Part shown: positions 10,746 to 30,514 of the stretch, piece by piece
Layout: every line of letters begins with the position of its first letter
Numbering within the stretch: the first letter of the stretch is position 1
From: an uncultured Erysipelotrichaceae bacterium
Lineage (GTDB): Bacteria > Bacillota_I > Bacilli_A > RF39 > UBA660
NCBI GenBank assembly: GCA_963535465.1
Contig: CAUSWF010000002.1
Location: 64,606-128,605, forward strand
Direction: 5' to 3'
DNA: 64,000 nt
The notes under the pieces: generated by a model
What the model was told of the DNA's origin: nothing
The model's input: only the letters and a program-made list of their open reading frames with translations
Database searches by the model: none
Program-made: the position numbers and the translations under genes

Positions 10746-10750
10746 TAAAT

Positions 10751-13183
10751 ATGACTCAAATAAAATTTGATAAATCTAAAAAATATTATGATAGTAAATT
10801 AAATAAATACTATGGTTAGGGTATTTGGTTTAAGGATACTAATGATGATGGTAAATATAATGAAGGAGAATCTTTAATTCCTATGGGAAATAGAATTAAA
10901 AATTCTAATAATTCTTATGTACAATTAAATTCTGATGGAAGTAGAACTTTATTATATTCTAAAGGTAAATTTACTAATACTAATATTTCAAATGTAGATA
11001 AATAGGCTATATCTAAAGGATTAATATATGGACGCAATGCTTCTTTACAAAATAATAAATATGTAAGATCTAATAATGGCATAAGTAATTGGGATATAGA
11101 TACAGTTAGACAAAAAAATAAAGATGGAAGTTATACAGATATTAATAATAATACATCTTTTATATATAATAAAAATAAATATATTGGAACAGCTGGCAGT
11201 AAAAATGTAATAGATTTATATCATAACGTAGTAAGTAATGATGGAGGTAAAACTTGGTCTAGAAATTCTACAACTCAAAAATCTGTAAGTCCTTTTATTA
11301 CAAGACGCTATGGTACATAGCCTTTAGGTTAGTATTTAAATCCAGATACTAATATTAAAACAAATTATGCTGAAGTTAATTTTGGAGATACTAATGGTTA
11401 GAATCAATATTTAAAAAATAATTATTGGGTATATGATGATGGTAATGGTAATGTTCAAACTATCGGATTTAGGTATAAAGATGGTAAAGATTATGCGTTT
11501 TTATCAGACGATAATAATTTTTTAAATGATAATGTTTCTGGTATTTTAAAATCTAAATAGAGTATAGGTTCATCTAAACTTAAATCTTATAGTGCTGGTT
11601 TTACTCCAGGTATGGAAAAATGGAGAGGAAAAGGTGGATGGTATACAAATGTAGGATAGGATCTCCCCGATATAGTATACGGTGCTAAAGATGGTTATTT
11701 ATATAATAAACAAGGATAGCAAATAGGATTTAATGCAAATGGTACTTATTATTTAAAAAATAATATTATTGCTTCTGAAGAAAAACCTACATTTAAGAAT
11801 ACTTTAGTAAATGGGTGGTCTGGCTTAGTACAAGACTTTAGTAATTTAAGTTCTAGATTTGATCCTTCTAATAATTAGGGTTTCCAAAATAGATTTACTG
11901 GAATATTTGGAGATTTAGGTAGAGGAATACAGCATGCTGCATAGGGTACTGTAGGGGCATTAGCTACTGCTATTATTCCAGATAGTTTGAATGAAACCAT
12001 AGGTAAGTATGGTTAGATTACCGATATAGGAAAAGATTTAAGAAGTATAACTAGTTTATTTGGTAATGGGAAATTTGTTACACCTTGGGATTAGGATAAC
12101 CATGGCCTTGTTGATTACGCAGATATAATTGGCAACAAACAAGGTCTTCAAGATATAAACGATGCATTAAATGGAGCAACTGTTTTAATCGGAACTAAAG
12201 GATTAGGCACAACAAAAGAAGTTTTAAAAGGAACACTGCAGGGAACAAAAGCTATGAGGTTTACTGAAGCTGCTCTTAAAGGAGCAAAAAATACTTCTAA
12301 AAATATATATTCAAATGGAGCATATTATACAGGAAAAGCAGGATTACGTCCAAGTAATATTACTCCTATGATTAATGCTGTTAAACAAGGTTTTAAAAAT
12401 GCACGTACTTATTATGAAGAATCTGCTCCAGTAGTAACAAAACCAACAATAGTTGAGTCTAAACCAGTAACAGCAGGTACAAAATAGTATATACAACCTA
12501 CAATAAAAAAACTTAATCCAAATAAAGGTGCTGAAGTAGTATATAATATGAAATTTAATCCTGTTTAGGAAGCTTAGAATATAATGGCTAAACCTAAATT
12601 TATATTTAAAGAAAATTCTATAGTACATGTTCCTAAAGGATTACCTGTAAAAGTAGAATAGCCTGTACTAACATAGCAACCTGTTGTTAAACCGTCTGTA
12701 CAAAAAATTCCTAAAACTGCACCTAAACAATTAACTTTAGAGTTTGTGGAAGATAAACCTAAATATGTACAACCTATATTAAAACAGCTTAATGATGCTA
12801 AAAAAGCTGAAATTGCAAGTAAAATAGTTCCTATAGATTATGCAAATGTAGCACATACTATAATGTAGTCTAAACCTACTATATAGCTTCCAGAATTTAG
12901 ATTTTCTTCTAAATTTAATCCTGTTTCTGAAGCTAAAGCTAGAACAGTTAGTAATACTTCAAATGTAGGAAATATTCCTAATAAAAATATTAAGTATGTA
13001 GAAAGTCAACCTACAGTTAATAATTCTAAAATACTACAGTGGAAGCAAGCTAAAGAAATTAAAGCAGTACCTAAAACAATGAAACCTAAAAGTAAAAGTA
13101 AAATATTGAAAAAAGTAAATAAAAAATATTTAGGTGGAATTTTAAATAATAAATTTAATAATTGGATAAATGCAAATAACTAA
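10751..13183 (+). CDS. Large virion/tail-associated hypothetical protein (810 aa), recoded
   Basis: One frame is open from ATG 10751 to TAA 13181-13183 with 19 in-frame TAGs. It contains track ORF 12254..12487. C-terminal internal repeat: Y(I/V)QPxxKxLN...KFNPV(TAG/S)EA occurs twice. Confidence 0.55.
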
Positions 13184-13697
13184 TTTTATAAAATATATAT
13201 AGAGTTGGGAAGGAGGTTATGCTAATATACCTCAAGATAGTGGAGGTCCTACTAATAAAGGAATTACCCTAACTACTTTCCGATCTATATTTGGGCAAAA
13301 CAAAACAATAGATGATTTAAAGAAAATGACAGATGAGCAATGGTGGAAAGTATTTAAAACTAAATTTTGGGATAAATACAAAGCAGATAATATTAAAGAT
13401 GAATGGTTAAGATATTTATTAGTAGACTGGTTATGGTGTTCTGGTCAATGGGCTATTACTAAAGTTTAGAAATTACTGGGATTAAATCCAGATGGAATTG
13501 TCGGAGACAGAACTATAACAGCTATTAATAGTAAAAATCCTAAACAATTATTTGATACTATTTGGAAGATGAGAGAAAAATTCCTTCAAGATATTTCTAA
13601 AGGTAAGAATAGTATATTTTTAAAAGGATGGCTTAGACGTCTTAATGGGCTTAAATATGGTTATTTAGTAACTAGTAATAATAAAATATTAAAATGA
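13170..13697 (+). CDS. GH108-family N-acetylmuramidase with PG_binding_3-like C-terminus (endolysin), recoded
   Basis: WEGGYANIPQDSGGPTNKGIT is the GH108 signature, and LLGLNPDGIVGDRT is PG-binding-like. In-frame TAGs at 13200 and 13467. TGA at 13695-13697 overlaps the next ATG. Confidence 0.75.
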
Positions 13698-13924
13698 GTT
13701 TTATAACAAATTTTAAAGAATCCAATAGGTATAAACACTTTTGGTGTGCTATACCTATTGGATTAATTTTTACTATACTTTGTGTTATTGGGTGTGCAGG
13801 AGGTATGGAATTTAAAGATAAACAATATAGTAATTATTGGGATTGGAAAGATTTTGGATTTACTGTATTAGGAGGATTTGTCGGACAGATATTATAGATT
13901 ATATTAATATTAATTTTATTATAA
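13694..13924 (+). CDS. Small membrane protein (76 aa), lysis-cassette partner, recoded
   Basis: Hydrophobic segments WCAIPIGLIFTILCVIGCAGG and GFTVLGGFVGQIL(TAG)IILILILL. TAG at 13895, TAA at 13922. Confidence 0.5.
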
Positions 13925-15273
13925 TGCCAAAACCTTTTGATTTAGATTTACATAAAAGTTATAATGTAAATAATAAAAGTAAAAATTATAAGTCCTTTAC
14001 TGGGGCTAATGGAGAATTATGGTATACTGATAGACCTTTAATTACTTATAATAATAGTAAATTAGCTTATGTAACTAACGGAAGAAATGCTAGATGGGTT
14101 ACTGTTGGAAATGAATTTAATACTTAGCCTTAGATGTTATCTAGAGAACAAGCTGTAAAACGAGATCTTAATAAACCTAGAATACAAGCAGCTAATGATT
14201 TAACTTAGGGTTTAACTGATCTTATTACAGGAGGAATGGCTGGATCATTAAGAGAAGGGGCTTAGAATCTTACTAAAGGTAATTATATTAAGGGTATTTC
14301 ATAGTTAGCTACACCTGCCATGTTTGGATCTGGAATTGCAGGAAATATAGCAAGAGCAGGTGTCGGATCTTATAATTTATTAAATGAAGATAGAGTTAGA
14401 AAAACATATAAATATATTAATAATAAGGAATATGGGAATGCTGCTGTTTCTGGATTAGGAGATATTTTAAATGGAGGTATGGCTATACATGGTGGTACTT
14501 AGTTATTTAAAAACTACAGAATAGTTGAACCTAAATTATTAAGTGCTAATTTAAATAATAAAAATATGCCATATTACTCTTAGTTTGAATAGTAGGAAGC
14601 ATAGCAACATATGATATCTGATATAAAAAGAGGTTATTAGAATTTTAAAGATTGGATGACGAATCCTCATTATTTAGAATCTACTTTAGACAACATGGAA
14701 GAAGCTAAAAGAATGGGTTTAAAATATACACCTACTTATGATAAACCTCATTATAAAGCACTAATGTAGAACGGTATTAAAATTAATTTTAAGAAATAGA
14801 TGCAGGGTAATGGTGCTACTAGTTAGTTTGGTGCATAGGCCGGACATCCTGCTGAAGTTGATTTAAATTTAGGATCACCACAATCATTTTTTAATACTGT
14901 AAGACATGAATCTGGGCATGCTGCTTATCATGGTAATGGGTTAACTCCAGATGAACTTAAATATTTAAGATTTAAAACTCATTAGGCTTTTATAGATAAG
15001 GCTGAGGCTGGTCCTTATGATTTTCATTAGTAGACTGGTGAAGCTGCTATGAACGGTAGAGATTTAGGACATGATTTAGGAATATCTGTAGGACAATCTT
15101 ATCCAGGATATTAGAAAGCTTTAGAAACATTAAATTCAGGACTAGGCAAATCTACAAAAGATGGAATGATTAAATTATTTAAAACAGATGAACAATCTAT
15201 GCCTTATGTATGGAAATTACTTAATGGTACTTTACTAGGAGGAGCTTTAGTAACTAAATTTAATAATAAATGA
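13924..15273 (+). CDS. HExxH zinc-metallopeptidase-motif protein (449 aa), recoded
   Basis: ATG 13924 overlaps the upstream TAA. 19 in-frame TAGs, TGA at 15271-15273. Contains VRHESGHAAYHG. It joins track ORFs 13837..14127 and 14320..14502. Confidence 0.55.
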
Positions 15274-15780: not shown

Positions 15781-15782
15781 AG

Positions 15783-15870
15783 TTGCCTCGCTAGGATTCG
15801 AACCCAGATTGACGCCCTCAGAAGGCTACAGATTTAGAGTCTGCCGTAATAACCATTATACTACAAGGCA
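15783..15870 (-). tRNA. Suppressor tRNA, anticodon CUA (reads TAG), 88 nt with long variable arm (type II architecture)
   Basis: Reverse complement: TGCCTTG TA GTATAATGGTTATTAC G GCAGA CTCTAAA TCTGT AGCCTTCTGAGGGCGTCAAT CTGGG TTCGAAT CCTAG CGAGGCA A. It has a 7-bp acceptor stem (U1-A72), a 7-nt loop with C34 U35 A36, and A73. Confidence 0.85.
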
Positions 15871-15876
15871 TTAAAG

Positions 15877-15948
15877 TTATCCCACTAGGATTCGAACCCA
15901 GACTAAGAGGGTTAGAGCCTCCTGTGCTAGCCGTTACACCATAGGACA
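15877..15948 (-). tRNA. Suppressor tRNA, anticodon CUA (reads TAG), 72 nt, tRNA-Gln-like
   Basis: Reverse complement: TGTCCTA TG GTGTAACGGCTAGCAC A GGAGG CTCTAAC CCTCT TAGT CTGGG TTCGAAT CCTAG TGGGATA A. U1-A72 is present, and the D arm is nearly identical to the phage tRNA-Gln(UUG) at 31788..31858. Confidence 0.85.
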
Positions 15949-16707: not shown

Positions 16708-18180
16708 TCATAATATAAATTTATAAATAGTTACTCTTTTATAATCTACTTGTTTTCTTGTCTTTTTAAATTCAGGAAAAAATGATTTTATTGTATTATT
16801 ATTCCATGTAAGTTGGTGTTCTTTTAATAAAGGTTTAAATATTTCCTGTATTTCATCTGAAGTATATTCTGATTTATTCAGTTCTACTAATTTATTATAT
16901 ATAAAAGGCAAGCCATGTTTAATTTTACTTGTAGCAATATTTGGTGTAAATGAATATTCCTCTGCTTCTTTTAATACTGCTAAACTATCAGAATAAATTT
17001 CACTAATTAAATCGTAGTTATATAGATCCAGTTTTCTAAGATTATCATCGTAAAATATCTTATCATTATGTTTATTAAGATATAAATTATAATAAGTATC
17101 TTTACTAAATAATTTTAATTCAGTTATATAATCATCAGCATCTAATTTATCTGTAAGTTCTGCTTTTCGTATACCTCTTCTTCTGGAATCTTCTACTAAA
17201 TTTAGAAAGTCTGTTTTAATAGTTCCTGCATATCTATGTTTATTTGTATTTAATATAAGTATACATTCATCTTTATATTTAGAATCTCGAAGTCGTCCAC
17301 ATACTTGTCTAACTTTAGTAGCTATATCTAATACTGTATTAGATACATTAGTATCTGATAATATTATACATAATCCATTTTTATCGTAAATATCACATCC
17401 TTCAAAAGCACATGATGTATAAAAATTTAAATGTTTTACTTCTGAATTTACTTCTGCATAATTACGTATTTTATTTTTACTATTTACTGAGCATACTACT
17501 CTATAATCTGGATTATCTAATTTTTTAATGATCGCATTTATTGTAGCTATAGAATTTAAAAATATATGTAAGTTTCTATCTTTATACATATCTATAATAT
17601 ATAATAATTCTTTCTGCACATAAAAAGTATCTCGAATATTTAGTTTAACAGGAACAGAATTTTGCCATTCATATGTAATTTGAGGTATATCCTTTAACTC
17701 TTCTAAAATACATTCAGGCTTAAGCGGAGTAGCTGTTAAGAATGCCCAATCTTTAAATTTATTAAAGTTTTGAAGAATATTTACAATAGCATCATTTCTA
17801 AAACTATAATCATTAAATAATAAGTGATATTCATCTATTAGTAAAAAATAATCTGGATAATTAGGAATTAACTCCATAAGTCTTGGAAGAGAATCATATG
17901 TAGCTATAATCTTTTTATATTCTAATGCTTTCTTTAAATAATTTTTAATTACTGTATTACCTACATCTCCCGTAACTCCTAGAACATTATCATTTGATTT
18001 AGATATTACTAAATTTTTAGTAGGACTAAGTATTAAACTATTCCGCCTAGCATTGATTTCAAGAGTTGTTCCGCCACAACCTGTGATTCCTTTATTAATA
18101 AGACAGTGTGATGGTAATTCATTAATTATATCTGATAAATATTGACACTTTTTGTCAATTAAAATTTTTTCATTTTGCAT
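16708..18180 (-). CDS. SF2 helicase-like protein with atypical motif I
   Basis: LLIDEYH (motif II DExH), FLTATP (motif III) and VRQVCGRLRD (motif VI). Motif I reads GITGCGGTT, with no Walker lysine. Confidence 0.6.
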   Translation of the reverse strand: MQNEKILIDKKCQYLSDIINELPSHCLINKGITGCGGTTLEINARRNSLILSPTKNLVISKSNDNVLGVTGDVGNTVIKNYLKKALEYKKIIATYDSLPRLMELIPNYPDYFLLIDEYHLLFNDYSFRNDAIVNILQNFNKFKDWAFLTATPLKPECILEELKDIPQITYEWQNSVPVKLNIRDTFYVQKELLYIIDMYKDRNLHIFLNSIATINAIIKKLDNPDYRVVCSVNSKNKIRNYAEVNSEVKHLNFYTSCAFEGCDIYDKNGLCIILSDTNVSNTVLDIATKVRQVCGRLRDSKYKDECILILNTNKHRYAGTIKTDFLNLVEDSRRRGIRKAELTDKLDADDYITELKLFSKDTYYNLYLNKHNDKIFYDDNLRKLDLYNYDLISEIYSDSLAVLKEAEEYSFTPNIATSKIKHGLPFIYNKLVELNKSEYTSDEIQEIFKPLLKEHQLTWNNNTIKSFFPEFKKTRKQVDYKRVTIYKFIL

Positions 18181-18230
18181 ATTTTTAAAATTTTAAATTT
18201 ATTAGTACTTAAGTATGAAAAAAGGTTCTC

Positions 18231-18307
18231 GTGTCAAACCTTAATATTATAGTGCCAAGACAAAATCGGGATTGTGTCAAGACATATCTTGTGCAGTAAC
18301 CAAGACA
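18231..18307. repeat. Iteron-like direct repeats (C/T)CAAGACA x3 at 22-23 bp spacing plus a GTGTCAAAC half-site
   Basis: ccaagaca at 18255, tcaagaca at 18277 and ccaagaca at 18300; gtgtcaaacc at 18231. They lie in the divergent intergenic region 18181-18636. Confidence 0.5.
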
Positions 18308-18636
18308 ATGCTAAAGTAAATATATTATTTTTATTTTCAAATTATATTTTTAATTTTAACATTTTTTTATTTAATCTTTCCCCCCCCATTTTAAAAATGT
18401 AGTTCGTTTTAAATTTATTATAATATCGTATAAACGAGAGTATAATTAAAAAATTTATAAGTTATATGAGAGAGAGTCCACTCCCTTCGGTCGCCCCCCG
18501 CCTATCGTCGTGGGAAAATAGTCTACATTTATAAACTCCTATATGAATTTAGGGGATTGAACATTAAAAGATTGTTTAATCCAGGCTAAGTACGCATGCC
18601 TTAAATTGCGCACACCTCAAAAAGGATTAAGACTTA

Positions 18637-18942
18637 ATGAATTTCATTAATCTTACTCCACACGCTATTGTGCTGAACGATGGTGCAGTGTACCAGCCTT
18701 CTGGTACTATAGCACGCGTTTCGGCTCAGTTCAGCGAGGTTGTAGATGGATTCTGCACACAGACCTTCGGGGATGTTGTAGGACTGCCTGCACCTCAGGA
18801 TGGTGTGTACTACATCGTATCTGCTATGGTCTTTGCAGCCACAGACAGAGTTGATGTAGTTGCACCAGCCACTGGGCATCCTGCGTGTGTAAGGAATGAC
18901 AAAGGTCAGATAGTATCTGTACCTTGCTTCCTTAGACACTAA
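18637..18942 (+). CDS. Hypothetical protein (101 aa), G+C-richer island
   Basis: ORF-track ORF starting MNFINLTPHAIVLNDG.... The antisense ORF 18634..18975 is judged a shadow. Confidence 0.55.
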   Translation: MNFINLTPHAIVLNDGAVYQPSGTIARVSAQFSEVVDGFCTQTFGDVVGLPAPQDGVYYIVSAMVFAATDRVDVVAPATGHPACVRNDKGQIVSVPCFLRH

Positions 18943-19067
18943 GGACGTGTGGGACTTTGGTTTAGGCAATACCAAAGGTTGTAGATAAAATTGCAGCTGA
19001 GCTAAAGGAGTGGTAGCTTTATGTCCACTCCGTAGTTTATAATTCTTTTATAAACTTTAATAAAATC

Positions 19068-19691
19068 ATGGCAAAACGTGATTCTTATTTAAAGCTTATA
19101 GTCAGAGCAGAATTCGAAGAGAAGACTGTCTGTGCTTATGAAGATGGGGATGAAACTTTCCACACAATACATCACGGCGATGCTTGTGAGGCAAGTACAT
19201 TTCAGGTCTTCAAAAGGGCATGGGTAGAAGTTTATTCGATCTTTCCTGCGGAAAAGAAGTTATTGAAAGAATTTAATGACTTAGTTGCATCTAAGAAGGA
19301 TGCATTCTACGCATTAAGAGATTCTTTCAGTGAGTTCTATGAATTCCCTAAGATCGAGATAAACACTTCTCGTGTGGAGTTCTGCGAAGAAGAGAGAAAG
19401 CTAGGAGAGTTAGACCTCACTGAAGAAGAGTATGATCAGTTAAAAGCTGATAAGGACTTCTTTAGTAAAAGAGGTACTTTCGTTATATGCTATAACGGAA
19501 AGAACTTCAATGGTCTAGCTATTGCTGGTCAACCTGGATTCAACTCTAAATTTAACTGGGAACAGTTAAGATCAGAGTGGCATCCTAAGGAGATCAGCGG
19601 CATTCTTAGAGAAGATTGGGATTACCTGAAAAACAGGGATTACAGTCTTTTCGAAGACTTGCTCGAGGCTAGTCTCTCTGAACTGATGTAA
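19068..19691 (+). CDS. Hypothetical protein (207 aa), island
   Basis: ORF-track ORF, no motif recognised. Confidence 0.55.
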   Translation: MAKRDSYLKLIVRAEFEEKTVCAYEDGDETFHTIHHGDACEASTFQVFKRAWVEVYSIFPAEKKLLKEFNDLVASKKDAFYALRDSFSEFYEFPKIEINTSRVEFCEEERKLGELDLTEEEYDQLKADKDFFSKRGTFVICYNGKNFNGLAIAGQPGFNSKFNWEQLRSEWHPKEISGILREDWDYLKNRDYSLFEDLLEASLSELM

Positions 19692-19799
19692 GCTCAAGTT
19701 GAGTTGCTAAACTCAATATATAGAAAAAATTAGCTATGCGAAGCTACCTCGCAGAATAAGTAGGTAGCATAGTTTCAATTATCCTAAACATTAATAAAT

Positions 19800-19901
19800 A
19801 TGGATAAAAGAATCGTCATCATTGAACCAGACGGACGTGTTGCCGTGTTCAATGATAGAGGGGCTTTCCTCGCTTACTTAGAAAGTAAGAAAGAGGCGTA
19901 G
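19800..19901 (+). CDS. Small hypothetical protein (33 aa), island
   Basis: ATG 19800 gives MDKRIVIIEPDGRVAVFNDRGAFLAYLESKKEA. It ends in TAG at 19899-19901. Confidence 0.35.
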   Translation: MDKRIVIIEPDGRVAVFNDRGAFLAYLESKKEA

Positions 19902-20027
19902 TCTTCTCGAGTTGTGTTATGCCACACAACGTGTAGACAAAAGGCACCGAGTTCACTTGCTCTCGTAAAAGCAAGTACACTTTTAACAACCAGAAGTTGC
20001 GCACGACACGAATCAGTGCATAAAGTT

Positions 20028-20537
20028 ATGCAGATCGCAAATAACTTTTCAGAGAGAACTTTCGCAGCAGCATCTTTGCTGTCAGCTGGTAGCTCATTTA
20101 AGATTGTAAAGGTTGACATCTTTACAATCGCAGGTTCAACCAACAGCTACGTTGGCATTGAACTTGAAGGTCAAGAGCGTAAACCTGGCTTGCGTTCCTT
20201 GATCTCTAAGGGGCAATTAGGTCAACCTGTTACCTTTAAAGGTGGCAGAATGACAACTGCTAAGGACCAAACTGTTATCCGTAACGAAGGCACATTCGTT
20301 ACAGAGTTTAAGGATTGGTTGGCAGCTAATCCTGCAGCTACCAACAAGACTGTTTGCGAGCACTGGACCAAGGTGCTTACAGGCAAGTACCTGAATTGCG
20401 GATTCGGTTCCGCGATCATCAACGAGTACAACAAGGTACGTTGTACCCTCGCACTCTCAGTGTCAGATCAGCCTGATGCTGAGTTTACAAAGTTAACCGC
20501 AGAGCAAGAGACAGCTCTGCAGTATGCATCTATCTAA
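20028..20537 (+). CDS. Hypothetical protein (169 aa), island
   Basis: In-frame ATG 20028 within track ORF 19914..20537. The upstream 19902-20026 is hairpin-rich (gttgtg..cacaac; acttgc..gcaagt) and more likely a leader. Confidence 0.5.
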   Translation: MQIANNFSERTFAAASLLSAGSSFKIVKVDIFTIAGSTNSYVGIELEGQERKPGLRSLISKGQLGQPVTFKGGRMTTAKDQTVIRNEGTFVTEFKDWLAANPAATNKTVCEHWTKVLTGKYLNCGFGSAIINEYNKVRCTLALSVSDQPDAEFTKLTAEQETALQYASI

Positions 20538-20607
20538 GTCTCTGTCCTGAGCATGACATTAAAAGGCTCTTTCTTTTTTAATATAAACACTTTAAAAAAA
20601 TACAATT

Positions 20608-20988
20608 ATGAAAGAGAAATTAATAACAAACTTAATAAATCTAGGTGCTGAAATAGTAAACCACCCAGATAAAGACAAAGCTATTTCTTGGTTAAAGATC
20701 TGGGGATTAGATTCTCCTGACACAGAAGCTCTTATAGAACTGTTGTGTCGTAAATATAAAGAGAATAATAAATTTTCTTGTAAGTTATTTTACTGGAACC
20801 TAGAAGACGGATGGAAAGTTTATCACAAACTCAAAGAAGCTGCGAAGAATATGCAATTAGACGAAGAAACTCGCTATGTTGCAAGTAGCTTACTGCATGA
20901 CGGATCTCCGTCTGCAATGGGCTACAGTCTAAGGATGAATGCTTACTATATAGAACATTTCATTAAGATTGTAACATTTGCATGTTAA
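20608..20988 (+). CDS. Hypothetical protein (126 aa)
   Basis: ORF-track ORF. Confidence 0.5.
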   Translation: MKEKLITNLINLGAEIVNHPDKDKAISWLKIWGLDSPDTEALIELLCRKYKENNKFSCKLFYWNLEDGWKVYHKLKEAAKNMQLDEETRYVASSLLHDGSPSAMGYSLRMNAYYIEHFIKIVTFAC

Positions 20989-21024
20989 AATATCAATCAG
21001 TTATTTATTTAATATTTCACAACT

Positions 21025-21263
21025 ATGAATAAAAGCATGTTTGTGGCAACATTAAGAGGAAAAATGTTTGGCAGGAGTGTTCTTTATTTAAGATAATTGC
21101 TGATACACAAGAGCATACTTTAAACAATCTTGCTAAAGATATTAGTTCTCAATATGGAATTAATGTGTCTGAGTTTCATTATGATCATGGGTACCTTAAA
21201 GCCCAGACCTCAAATGAAAATATTACGATCTATATAGAAGAAGTGAACTTAGAAGAGGTGTGA
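21025..21263 (+). pseudogene. Small gene split across two frames at an A5 run (frameshifted, slippery, or assembly error)
   Basis: ATG 21025 encodes MNKSMFVATLRGK... and stops after 23 codons. The -1 frame continues from the ggaaaaatg run as NVWQECSLFKIIADTQEH...EEV with TGA at 21261-63 and has no start codon of its own. Confidence 0.35.
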
Positions 21264-21278
21264 CAACCTCTTCTTTTA
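21251..21278 (+). terminator. Intrinsic terminator
   Basis: agaagaggt pairs with acctcttct (9 bp), followed by TTTT. Confidence 0.7.
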
Positions 21279-21302
21279 TATTAATATTTAAAATATAGAA
21301 CT

Positions 21303-21527
21303 ATGTTTACATTCATAATTAATAGTATTGAACTACTTCAAGATAAGAAAGGTACAATAGGTCATCATGCAGTGGTAGCCTGTGCCAACGAAGTAACCGA
21401 AGAGGTTCGTCAAAAAGTGGGAGTACAAGTTAAAAAAAGATTCGGTCTAACATTGGATACAACAACAGGAAAGACATCTGATCCAGATGTCTTTCTGACC
21501 ATTTCAACTACTATTTTAATAAAATAA
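21303..21527 (+). CDS. Hypothetical protein (74 aa), island
   Basis: ORF-track ORF. Confidence 0.5.
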   Translation: MFTFIINSIELLQDKKGTIGHHAVVACANEVTEEVRQKVGVQVKKRFGLTLDTTTGKTSDPDVFLTISTTILIK

Positions 21528-21535
21528 AATAAACT

Positions 21536-21691
21536 ATGTTACAGTACAATAATAAATCACTCAGATTTTGCTCTTACTCTGATATAGAGAATAAGGAGCA
21601 TAAGTGGATCGGTCAAACAAGAACTGATGAGTTCGGACGATCATTACAAATCTGGCAAGTAGGCGATGCCTACTATGCCTGCATAGCTTAA
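21536..21691 (+). CDS. Small hypothetical protein (51 aa), island
   Basis: ATG 21536 gives MLQYNNKSLRFCSYSDIENKEHKWIGQTR...YYACIA, with a TAA stop. A strong terminator follows. Confidence 0.4.
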   Translation: MLQYNNKSLRFCSYSDIENKEHKWIGQTRTDEFGRSLQIWQVGDAYYACIA

Positions 21692-21696
21692 AGAAT

Positions 21697-21729
21697 AAAG
21701 GGAAGGCTTCGGCTTTCCCTTTATTTTTT
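21697..21729 (+). terminator. Intrinsic terminator with UUCG tetraloop
   Basis: aaagggaaggc-ttcg-gctttcccttt, followed by ATTTTTT. Confidence 0.75.
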
Positions 21730-21927
21730 CTCTATATGCTTGCTGGGAGGAGAGAAAATAGTCTTTTCTTCACTTAAAAATAGTCTATGTATAAACTGCT
21801 ACATTACCTTAGCGGAAAGACTACAATGTTTATGTATAGGCTGAAACAGCCAAAAGAAATCCTATACATCACATTGTACGCTAAATTCAATAAGTAATAA
21901 TTAAAAGTATCTTTTGGCAAATTAATC

Positions 21928-22464
21928 ATGCAAATAGTAGAAGCAATGAACAGAGAGTTGGAAATGGTAGTAGCTAATGGTGGTAAGCAGCAGGATGCTT
22001 TCAGTAGCAAGGCTATTCAGTCAGAAATTGAGACTCTTGAGAAGGGTGATGTATTCCAGGTATTTGGAAAGGTATTCAGTTCTCCTGTTCGTAGAGGTTC
22101 TAATGCCATTGCAGAATACAAACAGGCTCGTGTGTTTAAGATGAAGGATGGTAAAGCTGATCCAGACTCTATGAGAATTGTAAACATTTACCCATCATTC
22201 TTTAACAAGAGTGTAGTGGAAGTAAACGAGAAGTGTGAGCGTACAGGTCGCATTATTCGTGCTGACGGTAGTGTTTGCCAGGCTTATAAGAGCCATGGTA
22301 ATGTTACTAAAGGTTGGGATCAAGTAATCGAGGGTAAAGTAATCGAAGTTACTGAGGTAACACCTGTACTACGCAAACGTTATGGTACAGAGAACCAGAC
22401 ACAGACTACCAAAGTGTGCAACTTTGAGTATTCTGATGTTACATTACCAGAACTCGATGCATAA
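21928..22464 (+). CDS. Hypothetical protein (178 aa), island
   Basis: ORF-track ORF preceded by a roughly 130-nt structured leader. Confidence 0.55.
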   Translation: MQIVEAMNRELEMVVANGGKQQDAFSSKAIQSEIETLEKGDVFQVFGKVFSSPVRRGSNAIAEYKQARVFKMKDGKADPDSMRIVNIYPSFFNKSVVEVNEKCERTGRIIRADGSVCQAYKSHGNVTKGWDQVIEGKVIEVTEVTPVLRKRYGTENQTQTTKVCNFEYSDVTLPELDA

Positions 22465-22657
22465 CATATACACATTGAAGGGTTACCTTATAGGTAACTC
22501 TTCTTTATGTATAAAATCAGGGCAATACATTGATTTAGTTTCTGTTAATCCGATTTTACCGAGGTTAAAAGAAGGCTTTTTCAATGTATTGTTGAAAAAT
22601 GGCAGATATGAATTAATTGATGCCAAGTGGACTACTCCACTCAAGATAGACCATTAA
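22457..22657 (+). CDS. Hypothetical protein (66 aa)
   Basis: In-frame ATG 22457 within track ORF 22382..22657. It overlaps the upstream stop by 8 nt. Confidence 0.4.
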   Translation: MHNIYTLKGYLIGNSSLCIKSGQYIDLVSVNPILPRLKEGFFNVLLKNGRYELIDAKWTTPLKIDH

Positions 22658-23127
22658 GAGTAGTGCGTTGGTGAGAGTAATCTCACCAGGTTGGTTGTTA
22701 TAAAGTGTTTATTTATTGAGGAGTTAGGGAGTGATGGTGAAGGGAAGGCTGTGTGAGCGCACAGAACCACCCACCAACCATTCTCTCTTTCCCCAATAAA
22801 ATCATTTTTTAAAAAATAAGGATTTGTATAATACTCTCTTAAAAACAAATATAATGTAATCATTTCAATTAAAAATTATTAAATAAATGATTTTAAAATA
22901 AAGTCATTAATGAAATACACAGTTTGTGAAAATAGTGTATTTTTTCTTTAAAAAATTCGTGTCAACAAACAAATAAACACTAATAAAAATATGGAATTAT
23001 TATTATTTATCATATTATTGGTAATTACATTAATATGTATTGCCAATTTAGCTAGTAAATTAGGTAAAGATTTTAATAGCTTCTTAGAAGAAAAATTTCC
23101 AAATATTAAAGAATAAAATTCAAAAGT

Positions 23128-25013: not shown

Positions 25014-25086
25014 GGGGCAATAGCAAAGCTGGTCAATGCGTTGGACTGAAAATCCAAAGATAATGGTTCGATTCCATTTTGTCCCA
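25014..25086 (+). tRNA. tRNA-Phe (GAA)
   Basis: Acceptor GGGGCAA/TTGTCCC. Anticodon arm TTGGA CTGAAAA TCCAA. T arm AATGG TTCGATT CCATT. Confidence 0.85.
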
Positions 25087-25094
25087 CTACAAAT

Positions 25095-25166
25095 CGCGAG
25101 GTAGAGCAGTGGTAGCTTATTAGGCTCATAACCTAATGGTCGCAGGTTCGATTCCTGCCTTCGCAA
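25095..25166 (+). tRNA. tRNA-Met (CAU), initiator-like
   Basis: Anticodon loop CTCATAA. C1 opposite A72 (unpaired first position), A11:U24, and two of the three G-C pairs of the initiator anticodon stem. Confidence 0.8.
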
Positions 25167-25172
25167 CATATT

Positions 25173-25259
25173 GGAGAGTTGGCTGAGTGGCTTAAAGCGC
25201 TGGTCTTGAAAACCAGAGGGCGGTAAAACGCTCCAAGAGTTCGAATCTCTTACTCTCCT
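25173..25259 (+). tRNA. tRNA-Ser (UGA), long variable arm
   Basis: Acceptor GGAGAGT/ACTCTCC. Anticodon arm CTGGT CTTGAAA ACCAG. Variable arm AGGGCGGTAAAACGCTCC. T arm AAGAG TTCGAAT CTCTT. Confidence 0.85.
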
Positions 25260-25267
25260 CTTATATT

Positions 25268-25353
25268 GGAGATTTAAGCCTAATTGGTAAGGCAGCAGTT
25301 TGCTAAACTGCCAGTAATCGTAGTAATATGATGTATAGGTCCTATAATCTCCA
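25268..25353 (+). tRNA. Aberrant tRNA-like element (Ser-GCU-like) lacking a canonical T arm
   Basis: Perfect acceptor GGAGATT/AATCTCC. D arm GCC TAATTGGTAA GGC. Anticodon arm GCAGT TTGCTAA ACTGC. Extra arm ATCGTA-GTAA-TATGAT. The T arm is replaced by the mini-hairpin tATAGGTCCTATa. Confidence 0.45.
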
Positions 25354-25375
25354 CAATTAATTTAAATAAAAGATT

Positions 25376-25585
25376 ATGAAAAAATTTAATAATCATTTGT
25401 TACCAAATGGTTTATGGTATTTAGTACAAGCATACCTTATTAGTACAGAATGGCAATGGTATAAGGATAATAATATTAAATATGAATCTGCTACAAAATT
25501 AACTGCTGGGCAATTATCTAATTTAGTTGCTAATGCTATTAGTTGGAGTGTAAAACGTATTCAATATAATACTGAAAATACTTAA
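25376..25585 (+). CDS. Small hypothetical protein, paralog of 27967..28194
   Basis: MKKFNNHLLPNGLWY...WQWYKDNN versus MKKFKGHVLPDDLFY...WQWFKDNN. Confidence 0.5.
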   Translation: MKKFNNHLLPNGLWYLVQAYLISTEWQWYKDNNIKYESATKLTAGQLSNLVANAISWSVKRIQYNTENT

Positions 25586-25635
25586 AAGATAAATAAAAAT
25601 CTACAGGCAATAATAATTTAATTAAAGCCTATTAT

Positions 25636-25706
25636 GCTCTTGTCGTCTAATGGTAGGACATGAGACTTTCTATCGTAGAATTACGGTTCGAATCCGTGCT
25701 TGAGTA
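25636..25706 (+). tRNA. Degenerate tRNA-Glu (UUC)-like, possibly a pseudo-tRNA
   Basis: The D arm TCGTCTAATGGTAGGAC and T arm are as in the Glu tRNA at 30128. The acceptor stem has two T-T mismatches, the anticodon stem has an A-G mismatch, and position 37 is T. Confidence 0.45.
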
Positions 25707-25943
25707 CAATTATTAGTTCTTACATAATAATTACGTCATTGTATTGTCGGGTATAAAAATACAACGGTAATAGATATTCCGTAAATATATCTAAGTACAA
25801 GCAGTAGTACTAGTTAGTAATTCATAAGTAAGACATTGATTACTAAAACTGAAAACAGTTATATCTATTATAATTGCAAATATAGTATTTATAATTACAG
25901 TAAGTTTGTTATACTCTAATGTGGGTTTTGAACTTACTAAATT

Positions 25944-26010
25944 GGAGTACCAAGGCTGGAGAATCTCCCTTGCATGGAGATTGTGGGGAGTTCGATTCTC
26001 TTTACCTCCA
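25944..26010 (+). tRNA. Aberrant 67-nt tRNA-like element (Ala-UGC-like) without a normal D arm
   Basis: Anticodon hairpin (AA)TCTCC CTTGCAT GGAGA(TT). T arm GGGAG TTCGATT CTCTT. The acceptor pairs only with a bulge (GGAGTA / TACCTCC). Confidence 0.35.
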
Positions 26011-26118
26011 CATTTCTAACATGATATCGGGACAAAGCGTTGTCCAATCTAGCAGAATATAAATACATCATTTTTAAACAAGTAGTAAGTTATTGTGAAA
26101 TAATTTACTATATTTGCT

Positions 26119-26177
26119 TAGGTAGTCAACGACAGCAGGCTTGCCCCGAAAGGTTCATAGGTCCTATCCTAAGCGCA
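26119..26177 (+). ncRNA. 59-nt structured element sharing the ATAGGTCCTAT module
   Basis: A 7-bp closing stem (gcttagg/cctaagc) encloses gtcaacgac, a cccc-gaaa-gg hairpin, and cATAGGTCCTATc placed directly 5' of the closing strand, as in 25268..25353. Confidence 0.35.
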
Positions 26178-26359
26178 TTTACTAATTAAACATTTTATAA
26201 ACATTAAAAAAGAAATATATTAAACCAGAAATCAAAACAATTAAAATAGATAATGAACCTTGTATGAATAATACAAGCCAACATAAAGAAGGATCTTCAT
26301 GGGTATGTCCATGTGATAAAGACTCTGTTACTATAGAAAATTTAATAAATAAATAAATA

Positions 26360-27232
26360 ATGGAAAATAAAGTATTTTTTGGAGAAAGTGGTTTAACTTC
26401 TACAAGTGCAAATCATGTAGCAAACCTTGCTAAAGAGTTCATTAGTTCAAATGAAAACTATCTTAATAGCATTTCTTTCATTAATTGTAAAGTAGGACTT
26501 ATCGGTAGTGATAAAGATCAAACTTACAGTTTAGGTGTACAAAATTTAAATGATATTGAAGTTATATTAGCAGATATTGCTAAATGTAAAGCATTGATTG
26601 CTTGGTTACGTGAGGCTATTAAAGCTAAGAATGCTTTAATTTCAGATATTAATAATTTTAATATTTCAAGTTATTGTCAACTTAAAGGACTACCTAATCC
26701 TGAACGTCCTCAACTTCCAGATTATTTAACAGCTGAAGAATATTATGATTCTCTTCCTATTAAAGAAAGAAATGAATATTATTCTTTGGAAGCAGAAGCA
26801 GCAACTTTAGGTCAGTTTATTCATCCTGGAGGTAATCTTAATCAGCAACGTAGTTTGTTATCTGAGAAATTAATGCACCCAATTAAATCTGAGGGAGAAG
26901 GAAGGGATACCATATTGTATAAGTATAGTCCTTCTATTAGTTTAGAAGAAGTGGATAGTACTTTCTTTAAGCTGCAGGCTAAACATAGAGAAATTCAAGC
27001 CAGATTAAATGGGATGAAGCATCTTTGTGAAATAGCTATGCAGCAAGACCGATTGCAAAAGGATAATACTTATAAGGCAGCTGATAATACATATTTTACA
27101 AAAATGCATGAACTTGCAAACGAAGTTAATATCTATAAAGACGAAGAACTTACAAGAATTCAGAATCTTAAGATTGTTATTCCAAATTCTCTAGAAAGTA
27201 TTTATAAAAAGATACAATCATTGGGTAAATAA
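26360..27232 (+). CDS. Hypothetical protein (290 aa)
   Basis: ORF-track ORF, no motif recognised. Confidence 0.55.
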   Translation: MENKVFFGESGLTSTSANHVANLAKEFISSNENYLNSISFINCKVGLIGSDKDQTYSLGVQNLNDIEVILADIAKCKALIAWLREAIKAKNALISDINNFNISSYCQLKGLPNPERPQLPDYLTAEEYYDSLPIKERNEYYSLEAEAATLGQFIHPGGNLNQQRSLLSEKLMHPIKSEGEGRDTILYKYSPSISLEEVDSTFFKLQAKHREIQARLNGMKHLCEIAMQQDRLQKDNTYKAADNTYFTKMHELANEVNIYKDEELTRIQNLKIVIPNSLESIYKKIQSLGK

Positions 27233-27577
27233 GAACTTAGAGGCTTGACCTCTTAATCTTATTGAATATGTTTAATAGATGTCATTTATCTATGAATAAA
27301 ATTATTGCTAATTTAGTAATAATATTTTAAGTTTGTAACTTAAAATTGAATGTATACTCTTTCAAAACTTATATTTAAAAGTAATCTGAACAATTACTGC
27401 TTTTGTTTTCGAAGAAAGAGTATGTTCTTGATATTGATTTTATTTTAGTTTTAGTTGGCATTTATTAAACATAACTCAATATTTTAAATATGTTTTTAAA
27501 TTTATTAATTATTATAATATTAGTATTAATTTTTGAATTATTACTTAATATTATTAAAATAATAGCTAAAATTTATC

Positions 27578-27784
27578 TTGATGAAATACGTAATTTGTAA
27601 TTATAATAATTATTCAGTAATTGAAATAATCGAATCTGATAACTTTATAAAAGTTGAAGAAAGATTAAAACAATTAAATAAAGGTTATAATAACGAATTA
27701 ATTATAATATCCTTACATAGGTATAATAAACTTATTAAAGGATTAGTATCAAAAATAAATAGAATTAAAAATATGTTAATGTAA
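27578..27784 (+). CDS. Hypothetical protein (68 aa)
   Basis: ORF-track ORF. Confidence 0.4.
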   Translation: MMKYVICNYNNYSVIEIIESDNFIKVEERLKQLNKGYNNELIIISLHRYNKLIKGLVSKINRIKNMLM

Positions 27785-27859
27785 AAATATGTGGAGAGGA
27801 GCAATGTTCTACTGTGGAGATGATAATGCATTCCTAGAATTATTCAACCCTTTCCCTAT

Positions 27860-27932
27860 GCTCATATAGCTCAGTTGGTAGAGCACTGGTCTCCAAAACC
27901 AGGTGTCCCCGGTTCGATTCCTACTGTGAGTG
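27860..27932 (+). tRNA. tRNA-Trp (CCA) with poorly paired T stem
   Basis: Acceptor GCTCATA/TGTGAGT. D arm GCTC AGTTGGTA GAGC. Anticodon arm CTGGT CTCCAAA ACCAG. The T arm CCCGG TTCGATT CCTAC pairs at only 2 of 5 positions. Confidence 0.6.
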
Positions 27933-27966
27933 CATTTTAATAAATTAATTAATTAATTAAATAATT

Positions 27967-28194
27967 ATGAAAAAGTTTAAAGGACACGTATTACCAGATG
28001 ATTTATTTTATATGATTGTATCATATAGTGAAAAAACTAAATGGCAATGGTTTAAAGATAATAATTTAACTATTCCTGAAGATTTTGGTTTTTCATTAGT
28101 TAAGAAAATATCTAAAGAACAATTGAATGATTTAATTAATTATGCTGTTAAATATAATATAGATAACATTAAATATGAAACTGAAGACTATTAA
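27967..28194 (+). CDS. Small hypothetical protein, paralog of 25376..25585
   Basis: ORF-track ORF. It follows a tRNA, as its paralog does. Confidence 0.5.
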   Translation: MKKFKGHVLPDDLFYMIVSYSEKTKWQWFKDNNLTIPEDFGFSLVKKISKEQLNDLINYAVKYNIDNIKYETEDY

Positions 28195-28558
28195 AAAATA
28201 TTTATTTAACGAAATTAATTTACTTACAGATAAAAAATGTAAGCCAGCACAAAATAGTAATTTATTGTTAATGTTCAGTGAACATAAAAAATATAGAAAA
28301 CCGTTCAACGGTTTAAATTTTTATAGAAAAAGATGTAATTTTTATGATACATCTGAAGCTTGTGAACTAATGGCTGAACATTTTTGGGAATTTGAAAAAT
28401 ATGAATGGTTTCAATTAATGATATTAATTAATGAATTACCCCTTGAATATTCTGGAGTTCCATTTAAATTAAAAGCTTATGCCAACGCATATTGTGATTG
28501 GTTTAAAAGAAATTTACCTGAATTATGGGAAGATTATAAAGAAGCACATAGAGAATAA
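28175..28558 (+). CDS. Hypothetical protein
   Basis: ORF-track ORF. Confidence 0.5.
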   Translation: MKLKTIKKYLFNEINLLTDKKCKPAQNSNLLLMFSEHKKYRKPFNGLNFYRKRCNFYDTSEACELMAEHFWEFEKYEWFQLMILINELPLEYSGVPFKLKAYANAYCDWFKRNLPELWEDYKEAHRE

Positions 28559-28562
28559 AAAT

Positions 28563-28751
28563 ATGAAAATAAAATATACAGAATATTTAGATGTCCCAGG
28601 ATTATTTGAAAACAATAATACCATAGATGATATTATAGCAGACCTTCAAAATTTGAAAGAAGCACATCCTGATACATCACATATAGATTTTATTTATGAT
28701 GATGGTTATGACTATAAATCTTCATTTGTCCAAATTAATTATTATATATAA
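28563..28751 (+). CDS. Hypothetical protein
   Basis: In-frame ATG 28563 within track ORF 28479..28751. This start avoids the overlap with the upstream gene. Confidence 0.45.
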   Translation: MKIKYTEYLDVPGLFENNNTIDDIIADLQNLKEAHPDTSHIDFIYDDGYDYKSSFVQINYYI

Positions 28752-28766
28752 TAAAAATTTTTAATT

Positions 28767-29540
28767 ATGAATCTTTTTAAAAAGAAAAAATATAAAATTC
28801 TAAAAGATGATTTTAGAATAATTGATGGTATTAAAGTTTATAGAATACAAGCTTTAAAATCATTTGCTAATGTAAAGAAAGGCGATTTAGGAGGATTTAT
28901 ACAATCTGAAGAAAATCTTTCACAACAAAATACTTGTTGGATATATGATGTAGCTATAGTTAAAGATGAAGTTAAAGTTCTAGACGATGCTAAAGTTTTT
29001 TCAAATTCTATATTAAGAGGTGTATTTACAGTAGAAGATGCTTGTAGTATTGTTGATTCCACTATTAAAGTTAAATTATGTGGTAGTATAAAAGATGGTA
29101 TACATCTTTGCGAAACTAATATAGATTCATATACTATGACACTTAAGACTGGAGTATTAAATAATAATGATATATATGCTACCAATTTAACAGTAATCGA
29201 CTCTTCTTTAAAATATGTAACTTGCAATGAAAGTAATTTATATTTTAATAATAGTTATTTATATGATGTAAAAATTAATAATTCTGTAACTTTAAATCAA
29301 GTAATGGCAAAACAAACTGAAATATCTTCAAATTCTGATATTTTTGTTTTTTTAAATAATTGGTCTAGCTTACGTTATTTTAATTACGTAGTTCCTAATA
29401 AGACTTGGTATGTTGGCTGTTTTATAGGTTCAGGAGAAGAACTTATTAAAAAAGCTTATAAAGACAGTGAATTATCTGGAAAAATGTATGAGAAATATGT
29501 TAAGTTTATAGAAAAACTAAATGAAGATAAGAACCCTTAG
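28767..29540 (+). CDS. Hypothetical protein (257 aa), repetitive beta-rich sequence
   Basis: ORF-track ORF. It ends in TAG (29538-40). Confidence 0.5.
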   Translation: MNLFKKKKYKILKDDFRIIDGIKVYRIQALKSFANVKKGDLGGFIQSEENLSQQNTCWIYDVAIVKDEVKVLDDAKVFSNSILRGVFTVEDACSIVDSTIKVKLCGSIKDGIHLCETNIDSYTMTLKTGVLNNNDIYATNLTVIDSSLKYVTCNESNLYFNNSYLYDVKINNSVTLNQVMAKQTEISSNSDIFVFLNNWSSLRYFNYVVPNKTWYVGCFIGSGEELIKKAYKDSELSGKMYEKYVKFIEKLNEDKNP

Positions 29541-29580
29541 AAAACGTCTTTTCTATAATTATTCTTTTTAAATAAAAAAT

Positions 29581-29718
29581 ATGGAAAAAATAATTCATCT
29601 ATATATAATTAATGAATGTGGTAAGAAATGCCCAATGTGTTGTAATAAGTTTTATAATATGGTTAAACTCCCCAGGGACTACAACCGGAATATTTCCGGA
29701 CACGGTCGCTTAGTGTGA
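29581..29718 (+). pseudogene. Truncated ORF with a CxxxCxxC (radical-SAM-like) N-terminus running into structured non-coding sequence
   Basis: MEKIIHLYIINECGKKCPMCCNKFYNM.... From about 29662 the reading frame enters G+C-richer hairpin sequence and stops at 29716-18. Confidence 0.3.
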
Positions 29719-30199: not shown

Positions 30200-30304
30200 C
30201 TTAATTTAAAATAAAAAATTATAGCAGCAGCTGATAAAATTTACTGTAAATATTACAGTGATTATTACACATTTAAAAAATGGATAGAAAAATACAGACC
30301 AAGT

Positions 30305-30511: not shown

Positions 30512-30514
30512 ACT

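Follow-up and report, generated by a model that had tools for sequence, protein, structure and literature searches.

A Crn4-type protein in a probable three-layer, promoter-proximal accessory region of a TAG-recoding phage

Introduction

How does an AT-rich phage come to carry a short run of small, G+C-richer genes at the head of a transcription unit, and what might these genes do? The question is raised by a 64,000-nucleotide stretch of DNA (contig CAUSWF010000002.1 of assembly GCA_963535465.1, positions 64,606 to 128,605), called the window below. The window is part of the roughly 162-kb genome of a phage with 27.9% G+C, in which the stop codon TAG is recoded. A preliminary description, made from the letters alone, singled out positions 18440-22800. 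It took this island either for a horizontally acquired cassette or for a set of very highly expressed early host-takeover or anti-defence genes, and it recognised no known family among the proteins. The genes are numbered P1 to P10 here, and the island features given below all lie on the plus strand.

The answer proposed here, to which a probability of about 0.7 is given, is that the island is a promoter-proximal accessory region built of three layers, with a Crn4-type protein encoded by its first gene, P1. The units P3-P4 and P9-P10 would form a conserved core; both would begin with a copy of one 50-nt element and a structured leader, and both would close with a strong hairpin or terminator. 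Between these units, a cassette of the genes P5-P8 would be exchanged among strains. Finally, a two-gene module, P1-P2, would have been inserted recently behind the first leader and would be the first thing translated from that unit.

Several relatives of the phage were available for comparison. Independent public metagenome assemblies contain the same phage, among them L005 and L002; over the island, their identity to the window is 100% and 99.96%, respectively. A second strain type, with L001 and L004 as its representatives, is 93-97% identical over the island and has no P5-P8 cassette. The more distant relatives are the IMG/VR contigs L019-L022 (102-166 kb) and contig L018 (22 kb), referred to together as the five related phage contigs; in L018 and L020, the helicase is 87-90% identical to that of the window. 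No DNA match to the island was found in about 50,000 deposited phage genomes.

P1 and the Crn4 family

The protein family Unk01 was renamed Crn4 in December 2025, when it was described as a dimeric ring nuclease of a new fold that degrades the cyclic oligoadenylates (cOA) cA3, cA4, and cA6 (PMC12830947; Chi et al., Nat Commun 2025). The fold consists of beta-strand pairs and one short helix, reported without other structural relatives. Members form homodimers with a domain-swapped beta-hairpin and an active site contributed by two subunits, and they release linear products with a 2',3'-cyclic phosphate. Catalysis needs conserved Thr/His and Arg residues, namely T13/H15 and R112 in Crn4a and H17 and R103 in Crn4b (PMC12830947). 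Crn4b is the smaller form and lacks the hairpin extension of about 10 residues seen in Crn4a. It is also found in phages and plasmids, "where it likely functions as an Acr" (PMC12830947). Among about 28,000 genomes of cultured phages, the same paper counts 11 with Crn4, and it puts forward the viral anti-CRISPR role as a proposal.

P1 (18637..18942, 101 aa) is a viral member of this family, probably of the Crn4b type, and a putative anti-cOA or anti-CRISPR enzyme; the assignment draws on profile, residues and fold. The PADLOC model PDLC01138 (Unk_01, labelled "unknown small protein, sometimes fused to CARF") matches P1 at E = 1.5e-15 (P1 residues 1-98, 103-position profile). P1 also matches PHROGs 30542 and 21731, both of the function-unknown category. 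Against the Crn4b structure 9r7b_A, phmmer gave E = 5.4e-4 with P1 itself and E = 1.7e-7 with a profile of 30 homologues. The alignment pairs the INLTPH motif and the VR(N)D arginine of the two proteins, with the chain numbering offset by one, and the corresponding residues of P1, T7 and H9 (NLTPH) and R86 (VRND), are invariant among the 30 homologues. An AlphaFold2 model of the P1 monomer reached a predicted local distance difference test score (pLDDT) of 97.8 and a predicted template modelling score (pTM) of 0.87. When the model was compared with the PDB by Foldseek, 9r7b was retrieved at E = 1.1e-8 (TM 0.74) and 9sma at E = 4e-7 to 9e-6; the next entry had E = 0.58, and the significant fold matches were Crn4b and Crn4a only. 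Since sequence, catalytic residues and fold agree, the membership of P1 in the Crn4 family can be regarded as established at the level of sequence and predicted structure. P1 is therefore the exception to the earlier statement that no island protein matches a family, which holds for the other proteins.

In both sequence and structure, P1 scores better against Crn4b than against Crn4a, but it is shorter than both and has loop deletions relative to Crn4b; it may represent a further Crn4 subgroup. The P1 subfamily is large. It comprises 864 metagenomic clusters at E <= 1e-3, of which the best-scoring 120 are 61-100% identical. Its members are scattered over unrelated bacterial groups and include 19 cultured-phage records, all annotated as hypothetical proteins. 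In two bacterial-genome loci, L041 (3197-4306) and L043 (3182-4303), the Crn4 frame is open for about 370 codons upstream, and these extended frames may be N-terminal fusions such as the literature mentions for some Crn4 homologues.

By analogy with the characterised enzymes, cOA cleavage, dimerisation and an anti-defence role are predicted for P1. In a homodimer, His9 and Thr7 of one subunit would act together with Arg86 of the other. The substrates would be cyclic tri- and tetra-adenylate, perhaps also cA6, and the products linear. The loss of cOA would then silence type III CRISPR-Cas and those cyclic-oligonucleotide-based antiphage signalling systems (CBASS) that use cA3, by leaving their CARF- and SAVED-domain effectors inactive. 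No cas or CARF gene was found in the island or its flanks. The missing CRISPR locus does not disqualify P1, because the same applies to the class of Crn4b proteins borne by phages and plasmids (PMC12830947).

Insertion of the P1-P2 module

P1 and P2, together with their intergenic regions, form a strain-specific module (18624..19797, boundaries approximate) that is present in L001-L008 and absent from L018-L022. In these five contigs, a conserved leader of about 100 nt comes immediately before P3 or P4 or is parted from it by a short hairpin segment. As the leader abuts P3 or P4 there, the module was inserted behind a pre-existing leader, and by its position directly behind this first leader, P1 became the first gene of the unit. 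The 8-nt direct repeat AACATTAA is the only repeat flanking the module (18560-18567 and 19787-19794). It may be a microhomology used in the insertion or may have arisen by chance in AT-rich DNA.

P2 (19068..19691) is an acidic protein of 207 aa (isoelectric point 4.8) and belongs to a new phage family of about 203 aa. Its 33 homologues share the invariant motifs MAKRD, YEDGDETFH, NG, and WxQLRS. Searches of Pfam, PHROGs, NCBIfam and PADLOC and of the PDB by sequence and fold gave no match for P2, and nothing consistent for the other family members. No toxin, antitoxin or defence-system model matched, the annotated phage collection held no matching protein, and the species-representative genomes held no relative.

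Among the loci retrieved through P2, Crn4 is directly adjacent to P2 in five lineages, in the order P2-P1, and lies 1.4 kb off in one variant of a sixth; only one type of phage has P2-bearing loci without Crn4. In L009, the order is P1-P2, as in the window, with P1 84% and P2 27% identical. These discordant identities indicate that P1 and P2 were re-assorted and yet stayed neighbours. The other phages that carry P2 are unrelated to this one, temperate and of 38-46% G+C, and P2 heads an early operon in them, beside repressor or integrase genes. Such phages are plausible donors of the insertion, which would explain the composition of the module. Two of these loci, L046 and L048 (positions 1-3300), have the P2-Crn4 pair beside sulfatase and short-chain dehydrogenase genes on contigs of 44-46% G+C. 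This context suggests prophages in hosts that are perhaps Bacteroidota, and gives a hint of the donor background.

P2 is rarely found without Crn4, remains its neighbour despite re-assortment and comes first in early operons, and for these reasons a counter-defence protein tied to Crn4 can be suspected in it. By this association, P2 probably acts in the same counter-defence context as Crn4.

Composition and codon usage

A computation of G+C content and codon usage, proposed in the preliminary description as a check, places the island far outside the range of the phage. From 18440 to 22800 the G+C content is 38.5%, against a mean of 27.2% (sd 1.2, max 30.3) in 510 non-overlapping segments of the same size. 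The island is real and begins and ends where it had been placed by eye; only its composition, then estimated at 40-45% G+C, was set too high. Single kilobases within it have 33-40%, and at a scale of 200 nt the content peaks at 47-51% in P1 and at 44-48% in P4; the change is abrupt at both edges. The shift sits mainly in coding sequence, above all at third codon positions. The G+C content at these positions (GC3) is 0.31-0.46 in nine of the ten island genes (0.22 in P7), compared with 0.144 ± 0.039 and a maximum of 0.244 in 39 background genes. The non-coding spacers, at 31-45% G+C, also exceed the flanking intergenic DNA (16-23%). Antisense open reading frames (ORFs) occur exactly where they had been reported (18634..18975, 19874..20143 and 20222..20434). 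They are by-products of the G+C-richer coding sequence, and the substitution patterns favour plus-strand coding.

The island thus has the atypical composition and codon usage of a recently acquired genomic island. Absence from relatives, which is also expected of such an island, applies to P1-P2 only, and no integrase or transposase domain was found in the island by Pfam and PHROGs scans.

Conserved core

P4, P9, and P10 occur at syntenic positions in every relative; P3 is shared by all except L022, and P8 by four of the five related contigs. P4 (20028..20537, 169 aa) is a lineage-restricted protein with 11 homologues, all at least 76% identical. It evolves under strong purifying selection, with a ratio of non-synonymous to synonymous substitution rates (dN/dS) of 0.04-0.10 at a synonymous divergence (dS) of 0.5 to >1, and its GC3 is 0.41-0.52 in all orthologues. 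P9 (21928..22464, 178 aa) belongs to a divergent family with 25 representative homologues at E < 1e-3. The members of this family measure 155-230 aa, mostly 155-190 aa, share motifs and carry no annotation. P9 is only 53% identical in L022, with a dN/dS of 0.08-0.23 and a GC3 of 0.30-0.44 in all orthologues. Between lineages, P4 and P9 show heavy to saturating divergence at synonymous sites (dS 0.5 to >1.8). Orthologues of orf102 and of the helicase, in comparison, have a GC3 of 0.09-0.23, against 0.30-0.52 for P4 and P9. Because GC3 has stayed high despite saturated synonymous sites and under purifying selection, the high G+C content of the core is maintained and is not the relic of a recent transfer.

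The start of P10 (22457..22657, 66 aa) overlaps the stop of P9 (ATGCATAA). This small conserved protein is 58-100% identical across L001 and L018-L022, with a dN/dS of 0.25-0.5. P3 (19800..19901) is an optional ORF of 33 codons, possibly a small gene or a leader ORF, and was not detected in L022. It stops at TAG in the window and at TAA in L001 and has a 13-nt deletion in L007. The next segment (19902..20027) is a hairpin-bearing leader of P4 with a fold of z = -1.0. It is non-coding, as frame-breaking indels in L001 exclude read-through of the TAG. A P3-P4 fusion of 245 aa by TAG read-through, given in one public annotation, is accordingly ruled out by the TAA and the indels of L001 and by the deletion of L007.

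For P3-P10, nothing consistent was found in Pfam, PHROGs, NCBIfam and PADLOC, and the same holds for the members of the P9 family. PDB sequence searches with P4, P9 and the P9 profile were empty, and the annotated phage collection contained no protein match for P9 or a P9 relative. A comparison of P4 and P9 as possible paralogues by hhalign gave a probability of 32% over just 30 columns.

The preliminary description had named conservation and synteny in relatives, together with ordinary annotated functions, as what would speak against its interpretation. The core proved conserved and syntenic, but its genes have no annotated function.

Control elements, leaders and 3' structures

The two core units begin with the same 50-nt element. 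A covariance model (R1) finds exactly two copies of it in the window (E about 1e-13), which bears out the homologous unit starts noted earlier; two is also the exact count per phage. Copy 1 (18512..18562; 72.2 bits, E = 1.6e-13) reads AAAATAGTCT...TATAAAC and is followed by a 6-bp hairpin, CUCCUA-N8-UAGGGG. Copy 2 (21774..21822; 67.8 bits, E = 1.5e-12) is kept in all relatives. The hairpin is 100% paired in seven sequences, and a compensatory C-G/G-C swap distinguishes the two copies. The element is probably promoter-like, with its hairpin near the 5' end of the transcript. It is specific to this phage clade and absent from donor-type phages. The short motif TAGTNTA..TATAAAC has two further matches in the window; they lie in coding-like context and are not recognised by the covariance model as copies. 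A partial third copy, the 5' half of the element (GTGAAAATAGTGTA, 22925-22944), precedes a 41-codon ORF at 22991 and is missed by the model. Rfam searches of 18200-23000 at gathering and permissive thresholds returned nothing above 25 bits or below E = 0.7.

Directly 5' of copy 1 lies an invariant G+C-rich block (18472..18511). Its 31-nt portion GAGAGTCCACTCCCTTCGGTCGCCCCCCGCC (18472-18502) is identical in the window, L018 and L022, while the proteins have diverged to 53-78% identity. As an RNA hairpin, the block (18466-18515) does no better than shuffled sequence (z = +0.9).

From element to ATG, the leaders measure about 75 and 106 nt. The first (18563..18636) contains the rest of the ancestral leader with its hairpins, is now the 5' untranslated region of P1 and has a homologous segment in L018, L019 and L022; the fold of 18530-18636 has z = -1.9. 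The 5' leader of P9 (21823..21927) is significantly structured (z = -3.68) and contains seven pairs with compensatory changes, including the change from GGCUG/CAGCC to GGUAA/UUACC in L022.

A terminator scan gave 6 sites against 3.4 expected, with terminator-like structures and U-runs at 21251-21274 and 21700-21718. The second belongs to a strong intrinsic terminator (21690..21735) with an 18-bp stem, a UUCG loop and a U-run (-22.8 kcal/mol, z = -6.25), which is kept in L018-L022. The island ends in an atypically long compound structure (22668..22800), composed of a hairpin at 22668-22689 and a long imperfect hairpin that runs into a U-run. The region 22655-22800 folds at -48.7 kcal/mol (z = -4.23). 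Eight of its pairs show double changes, yet the covariation term is unfavourable. The structure is a probable terminator or 3' stabiliser closing the island. All three hairpins named in the preliminary description thus exist, but a hairpin around nearly every gene was an overstatement, as the other intergenic folds have z = -1 to -2.5.

Variable cassette and genomic setting

The terminator-bounded cassette P5-P8 (20570..21719) is missing in L001 and L004, and its content differs in each relative. P5 (20608-20988) matches the function-unknown phrog_14407 at E = 4e-4. P7 and P8 lie at 21303-21527 and 21536-21691. Between P5 and P7, a frameshifted ORF (21025-21263) ends inside the terminator at 21251-21274. 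Here, an ATG-initiated ORF of 22 codons overlaps, in the -1 frame, an open frame of 76 codons without a start codon. This ORF has a weak PHROG match only (E = 0.035) and no counterpart in relatives; it is possibly a frameshifted pseudogene or a case of slippage near GGAAAAATG.

Between the window and L001, identity is 99-100% in the flanks and falls to 94% in P2, 89% in P3 and the P4 leader and 80% in P4, after which 1.1 kb (P5-P8) is missing. The P4 leader is better conserved than P4 itself, and the P4 allele of the window resembles its counterparts in L018 and L019 more than the one in L001. The drop in identity, the loss of P5-P8 and the affinity of the P4 allele mark the centre of the island as a hotspot of recombination and gene exchange, of the sort usual in accessory or counter-defence regions.

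The island starts a long run of plus-strand genes, a rightward transcription unit, at a divergent intergenic region. On its left, a helicase-like gene on the minus strand (16708-18180) separates it from a TAG-recoded block (7686-15273). When TAG is read as sense, ORFs of 385, 816, and 479 codons in this block carry 22, 20, and 19 in-frame TAGs, respectively; translation of 7.7-16.1 kb with table 11 gives no ORF of at least 120 aa, and the part from 8.4 to 15.3 kb is intelligible only with TAG as a sense codon. Two tRNA-CUA amber suppressor genes lie at the right end of the block (15782-15948, minus strand). Next to this block, the island genes are written in the standard code.

Other features of the surroundings were noted. 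The public gene calls for L002 and L003 evidently treat TAG as sense, as they include genes of 810 aa and 449 aa. In addition to the two suppressors, the window holds a transfer-messenger RNA (tmRNA; 35955-36274, tag peptide AKVIPMNSFAVRIAA) and ten tRNA genes (25014-37922). A poly-C tract in the intergenic region between helicase and island (18379-18386) measures C8 in the window against C10 in L002, a sequence with no other difference; this is either a homopolymer length variation or a sequencing artefact.

Alternative explanations

An island with such sharp edges calls to mind a chimeric assembly, in which a G+C-richer contig was joined into an AT-rich phage. This is practically out of the question. 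Assemblies made independently by different projects and with different assemblers (L001-L006 and the IMG/VR contigs L019-L022) show the same arrangement, which refutes an artefact, and both junctions lie inside conserved sequence. A genuine but foreign origin of the whole 4.4 kb, as one recent cassette that has not yet drifted to the AT-rich composition, would account for G+C content and GC3 far outside the phage range and for the richer spacers, and its P1-P2 part is truly an insertion. Nevertheless, it is very unlikely, as P4, P9 and P10 keep their order in every relative, even in L022, and P4 and P9 retain their GC3 despite saturated synonymous sites, with the neighbouring genes at 0.09-0.23. 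Nor does the island have an integrase, a transposase or any flanking repeat longer than 8 nt, and both of its units share a clade-specific control element that donor-type phages lack. Horizontal acquisition, as first suggested, therefore stands for the P1-P2 module, absent from L018-L022 and recurring in unrelated phages of 38-46% G+C, and falls for the conserved, syntenic rest. For the core, the codon usage of P4 and P9 could instead be an adaptation to the tRNA pool of the host, made by immediate-early host-takeover genes that are translated before the tRNAs, tmRNA and suppressors of the phage are available. This explanation deserves consideration, although the balance is somewhat against it. 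It agrees with a GC3 kept under synonymous saturation and strong purifying selection, with the standard code and TAA stops beside a heavily recoded block and two tRNA-CUA genes, and with units that have a control element of their own, structured leaders and strong terminators. The G+C content of the P1-P2 donor prophages (38-46%) and the context of L046 and L048, moreover, hint at hosts of about 45% G+C. Against it, the genes directly downstream in the same orientation (23.1-24.4 kb) have an ordinary, low GC3 (0.17-0.23 in orf102). Structure or stability of the mRNA, escape from an AT-directed nuclease or silencer, and recombination with G+C-richer alleles are other possible causes. Selection for host-like codons in genes translated before the phage tRNAs and suppressors act would, in our view, be the most attractive cause.

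The role of P1 can also be questioned. A Crn4-fold protein might serve another use, such as nucleotide signalling within the phage or the trimming of RNA 3' ends, and P1-P2 might be a toxin-antitoxin or superinfection-exclusion pair. Crn4a also trims polyA RNA in vitro (PMC12830947), P1 is shorter than the characterised Crn4 proteins, and the two genes are adjacent in many phages in either order, as in two-component systems. On the other hand, the three catalytic or binding residues are invariant across the subfamily, the fold matches Crn4 alone, and an obligate pair is hard to reconcile with Crn4 occurring alone in all 23 bacterial-genome loci and in L010 and L011. As P2 also matches no toxin, antitoxin or defence-system model, these uses seem unlikely. 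Anti-defence genes had been one of the first suggestions for the island, and this is upheld for one gene, P1, by its Crn4 assignment; the other proteins have no such support.

Several points nonetheless weigh against the three-layer accessory region with a counter-defence P1. At 101 aa, P1 is shorter than both characterised Crn4 proteins, and because Crn4 is also a cellular housekeeping off-switch, a regulatory rather than a counter-defence role is conceivable. A type III CRISPR or CBASS target in the host is presumed. P2 was found in none of the 23 Crn4-bearing loci of bacterial genomes, which makes it dispensable for Crn4 function in general. What P2, P4 and P9 do is an inference at most. 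A scan for sigma-70-type promoters showed no enrichment (53 sites against 54.2 expected), and early, high expression is a plausible reading of position, standard code, control element, leaders and terminators. Even so, we consider the three-layer accessory region the best account, and the island is probably expressed early.

A bolder version would make P2 a new counter-defence protein tied to viral Crn4 and, at the same time, the core an immediate-early module privileged in codon usage. Taken together, these two proposals are rather doubtful. If they applied, P2 might neutralise a cost of the ring nuclease or extend protection to another signal or effector. Such a cost could come from Panoptes-type guard systems, for example, which fire on cA3 depletion (PMC13577387).

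Relation to known systems

The locus is a natural example, in a large uncultured phage, of a Crn4b-like gene whose recent insertion behind a strong conserved leader put it first in its unit. The sister strains, which have no P1, provide a ready comparison for studying a counter-defence role of viral ring nucleases. Metagenomic phages carry this Crn4 subfamily in abundance, and its recurrent partner P2 is a new anti-defence candidate. More generally, a sharp island of G+C content and codon usage in a phage need not mean recent transfer, as here it is maintained in a few genes; such an island also bears on the staging of early and late translation in stop-codon-recoded phages.

The closest known relative of P1 is Crn4b (9r7b, 9sma), with which it shares the family, the N-terminal (I/L)NLTPH motif, the C-terminal VR(N)D arginine and an otherwise unique fold. 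Like the Crn4b reported from phages and plasmids, P1 is a small stand-alone protein on a mobile element (PMC12830947). It differs in length (101 aa against 114-128 residues in the crystallised Crn4b proteins) and is 29% identical to 9r7b. It lies outside a CRISPR locus and is usually accompanied by P2 in the sampled phages, and the 864 clusters of its subfamily are far above the 11 cultured-phage homologues counted in the paper (PMC12830947).

The role proposed for P1 is that of AcrIII-1/Crn2 (DUF1874), a small dimeric phage enzyme that degrades cOA against type III CRISPR signalling. AcrIII-1 is expressed from early or accessory regions and uses a catalytic histidine as general acid (summarised in PMC12830947). 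P1 has no DUF1874 match in Pfam, and no such structure is among its fold matches. AcrIII-1 acts specifically on cA4; cleavage by Crn4 enzymes extends to cA3 and, for Crn4a, to cA6. The 2H phosphodiesterase Acb1 and the sponges Acb2 and Tad1/Tad2 follow a shared logic, the removal of immune messengers including cA3 by the products of small early accessory genes. None of the ten island proteins matches a model of the Acb1, Acb2, Tad1 or Tad2 type in Pfam, PHROGs, NCBIfam or PADLOC, and a sponge or phosphodiesterase role for P2 would be speculation.

Finally, the island can be set beside early anti-defence hotspots, such as T7 0.3/ocr, the pre-early regions of T4 and T5 and repressor-adjacent islands. 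It differs from them in a core with maintained G+C-rich codon usage and in a duplicated, clade-specific control element, and its phage is TAG-recoded. To our knowledge, and short of an exhaustive search, such traits have not been described for these hotspots. In other respects the island is like them: the genes are small, mostly unannotated and promoter-proximal, they are present or absent according to strain, alleles are swapped, and one of the genes can be identified as a candidate for counter-defence.

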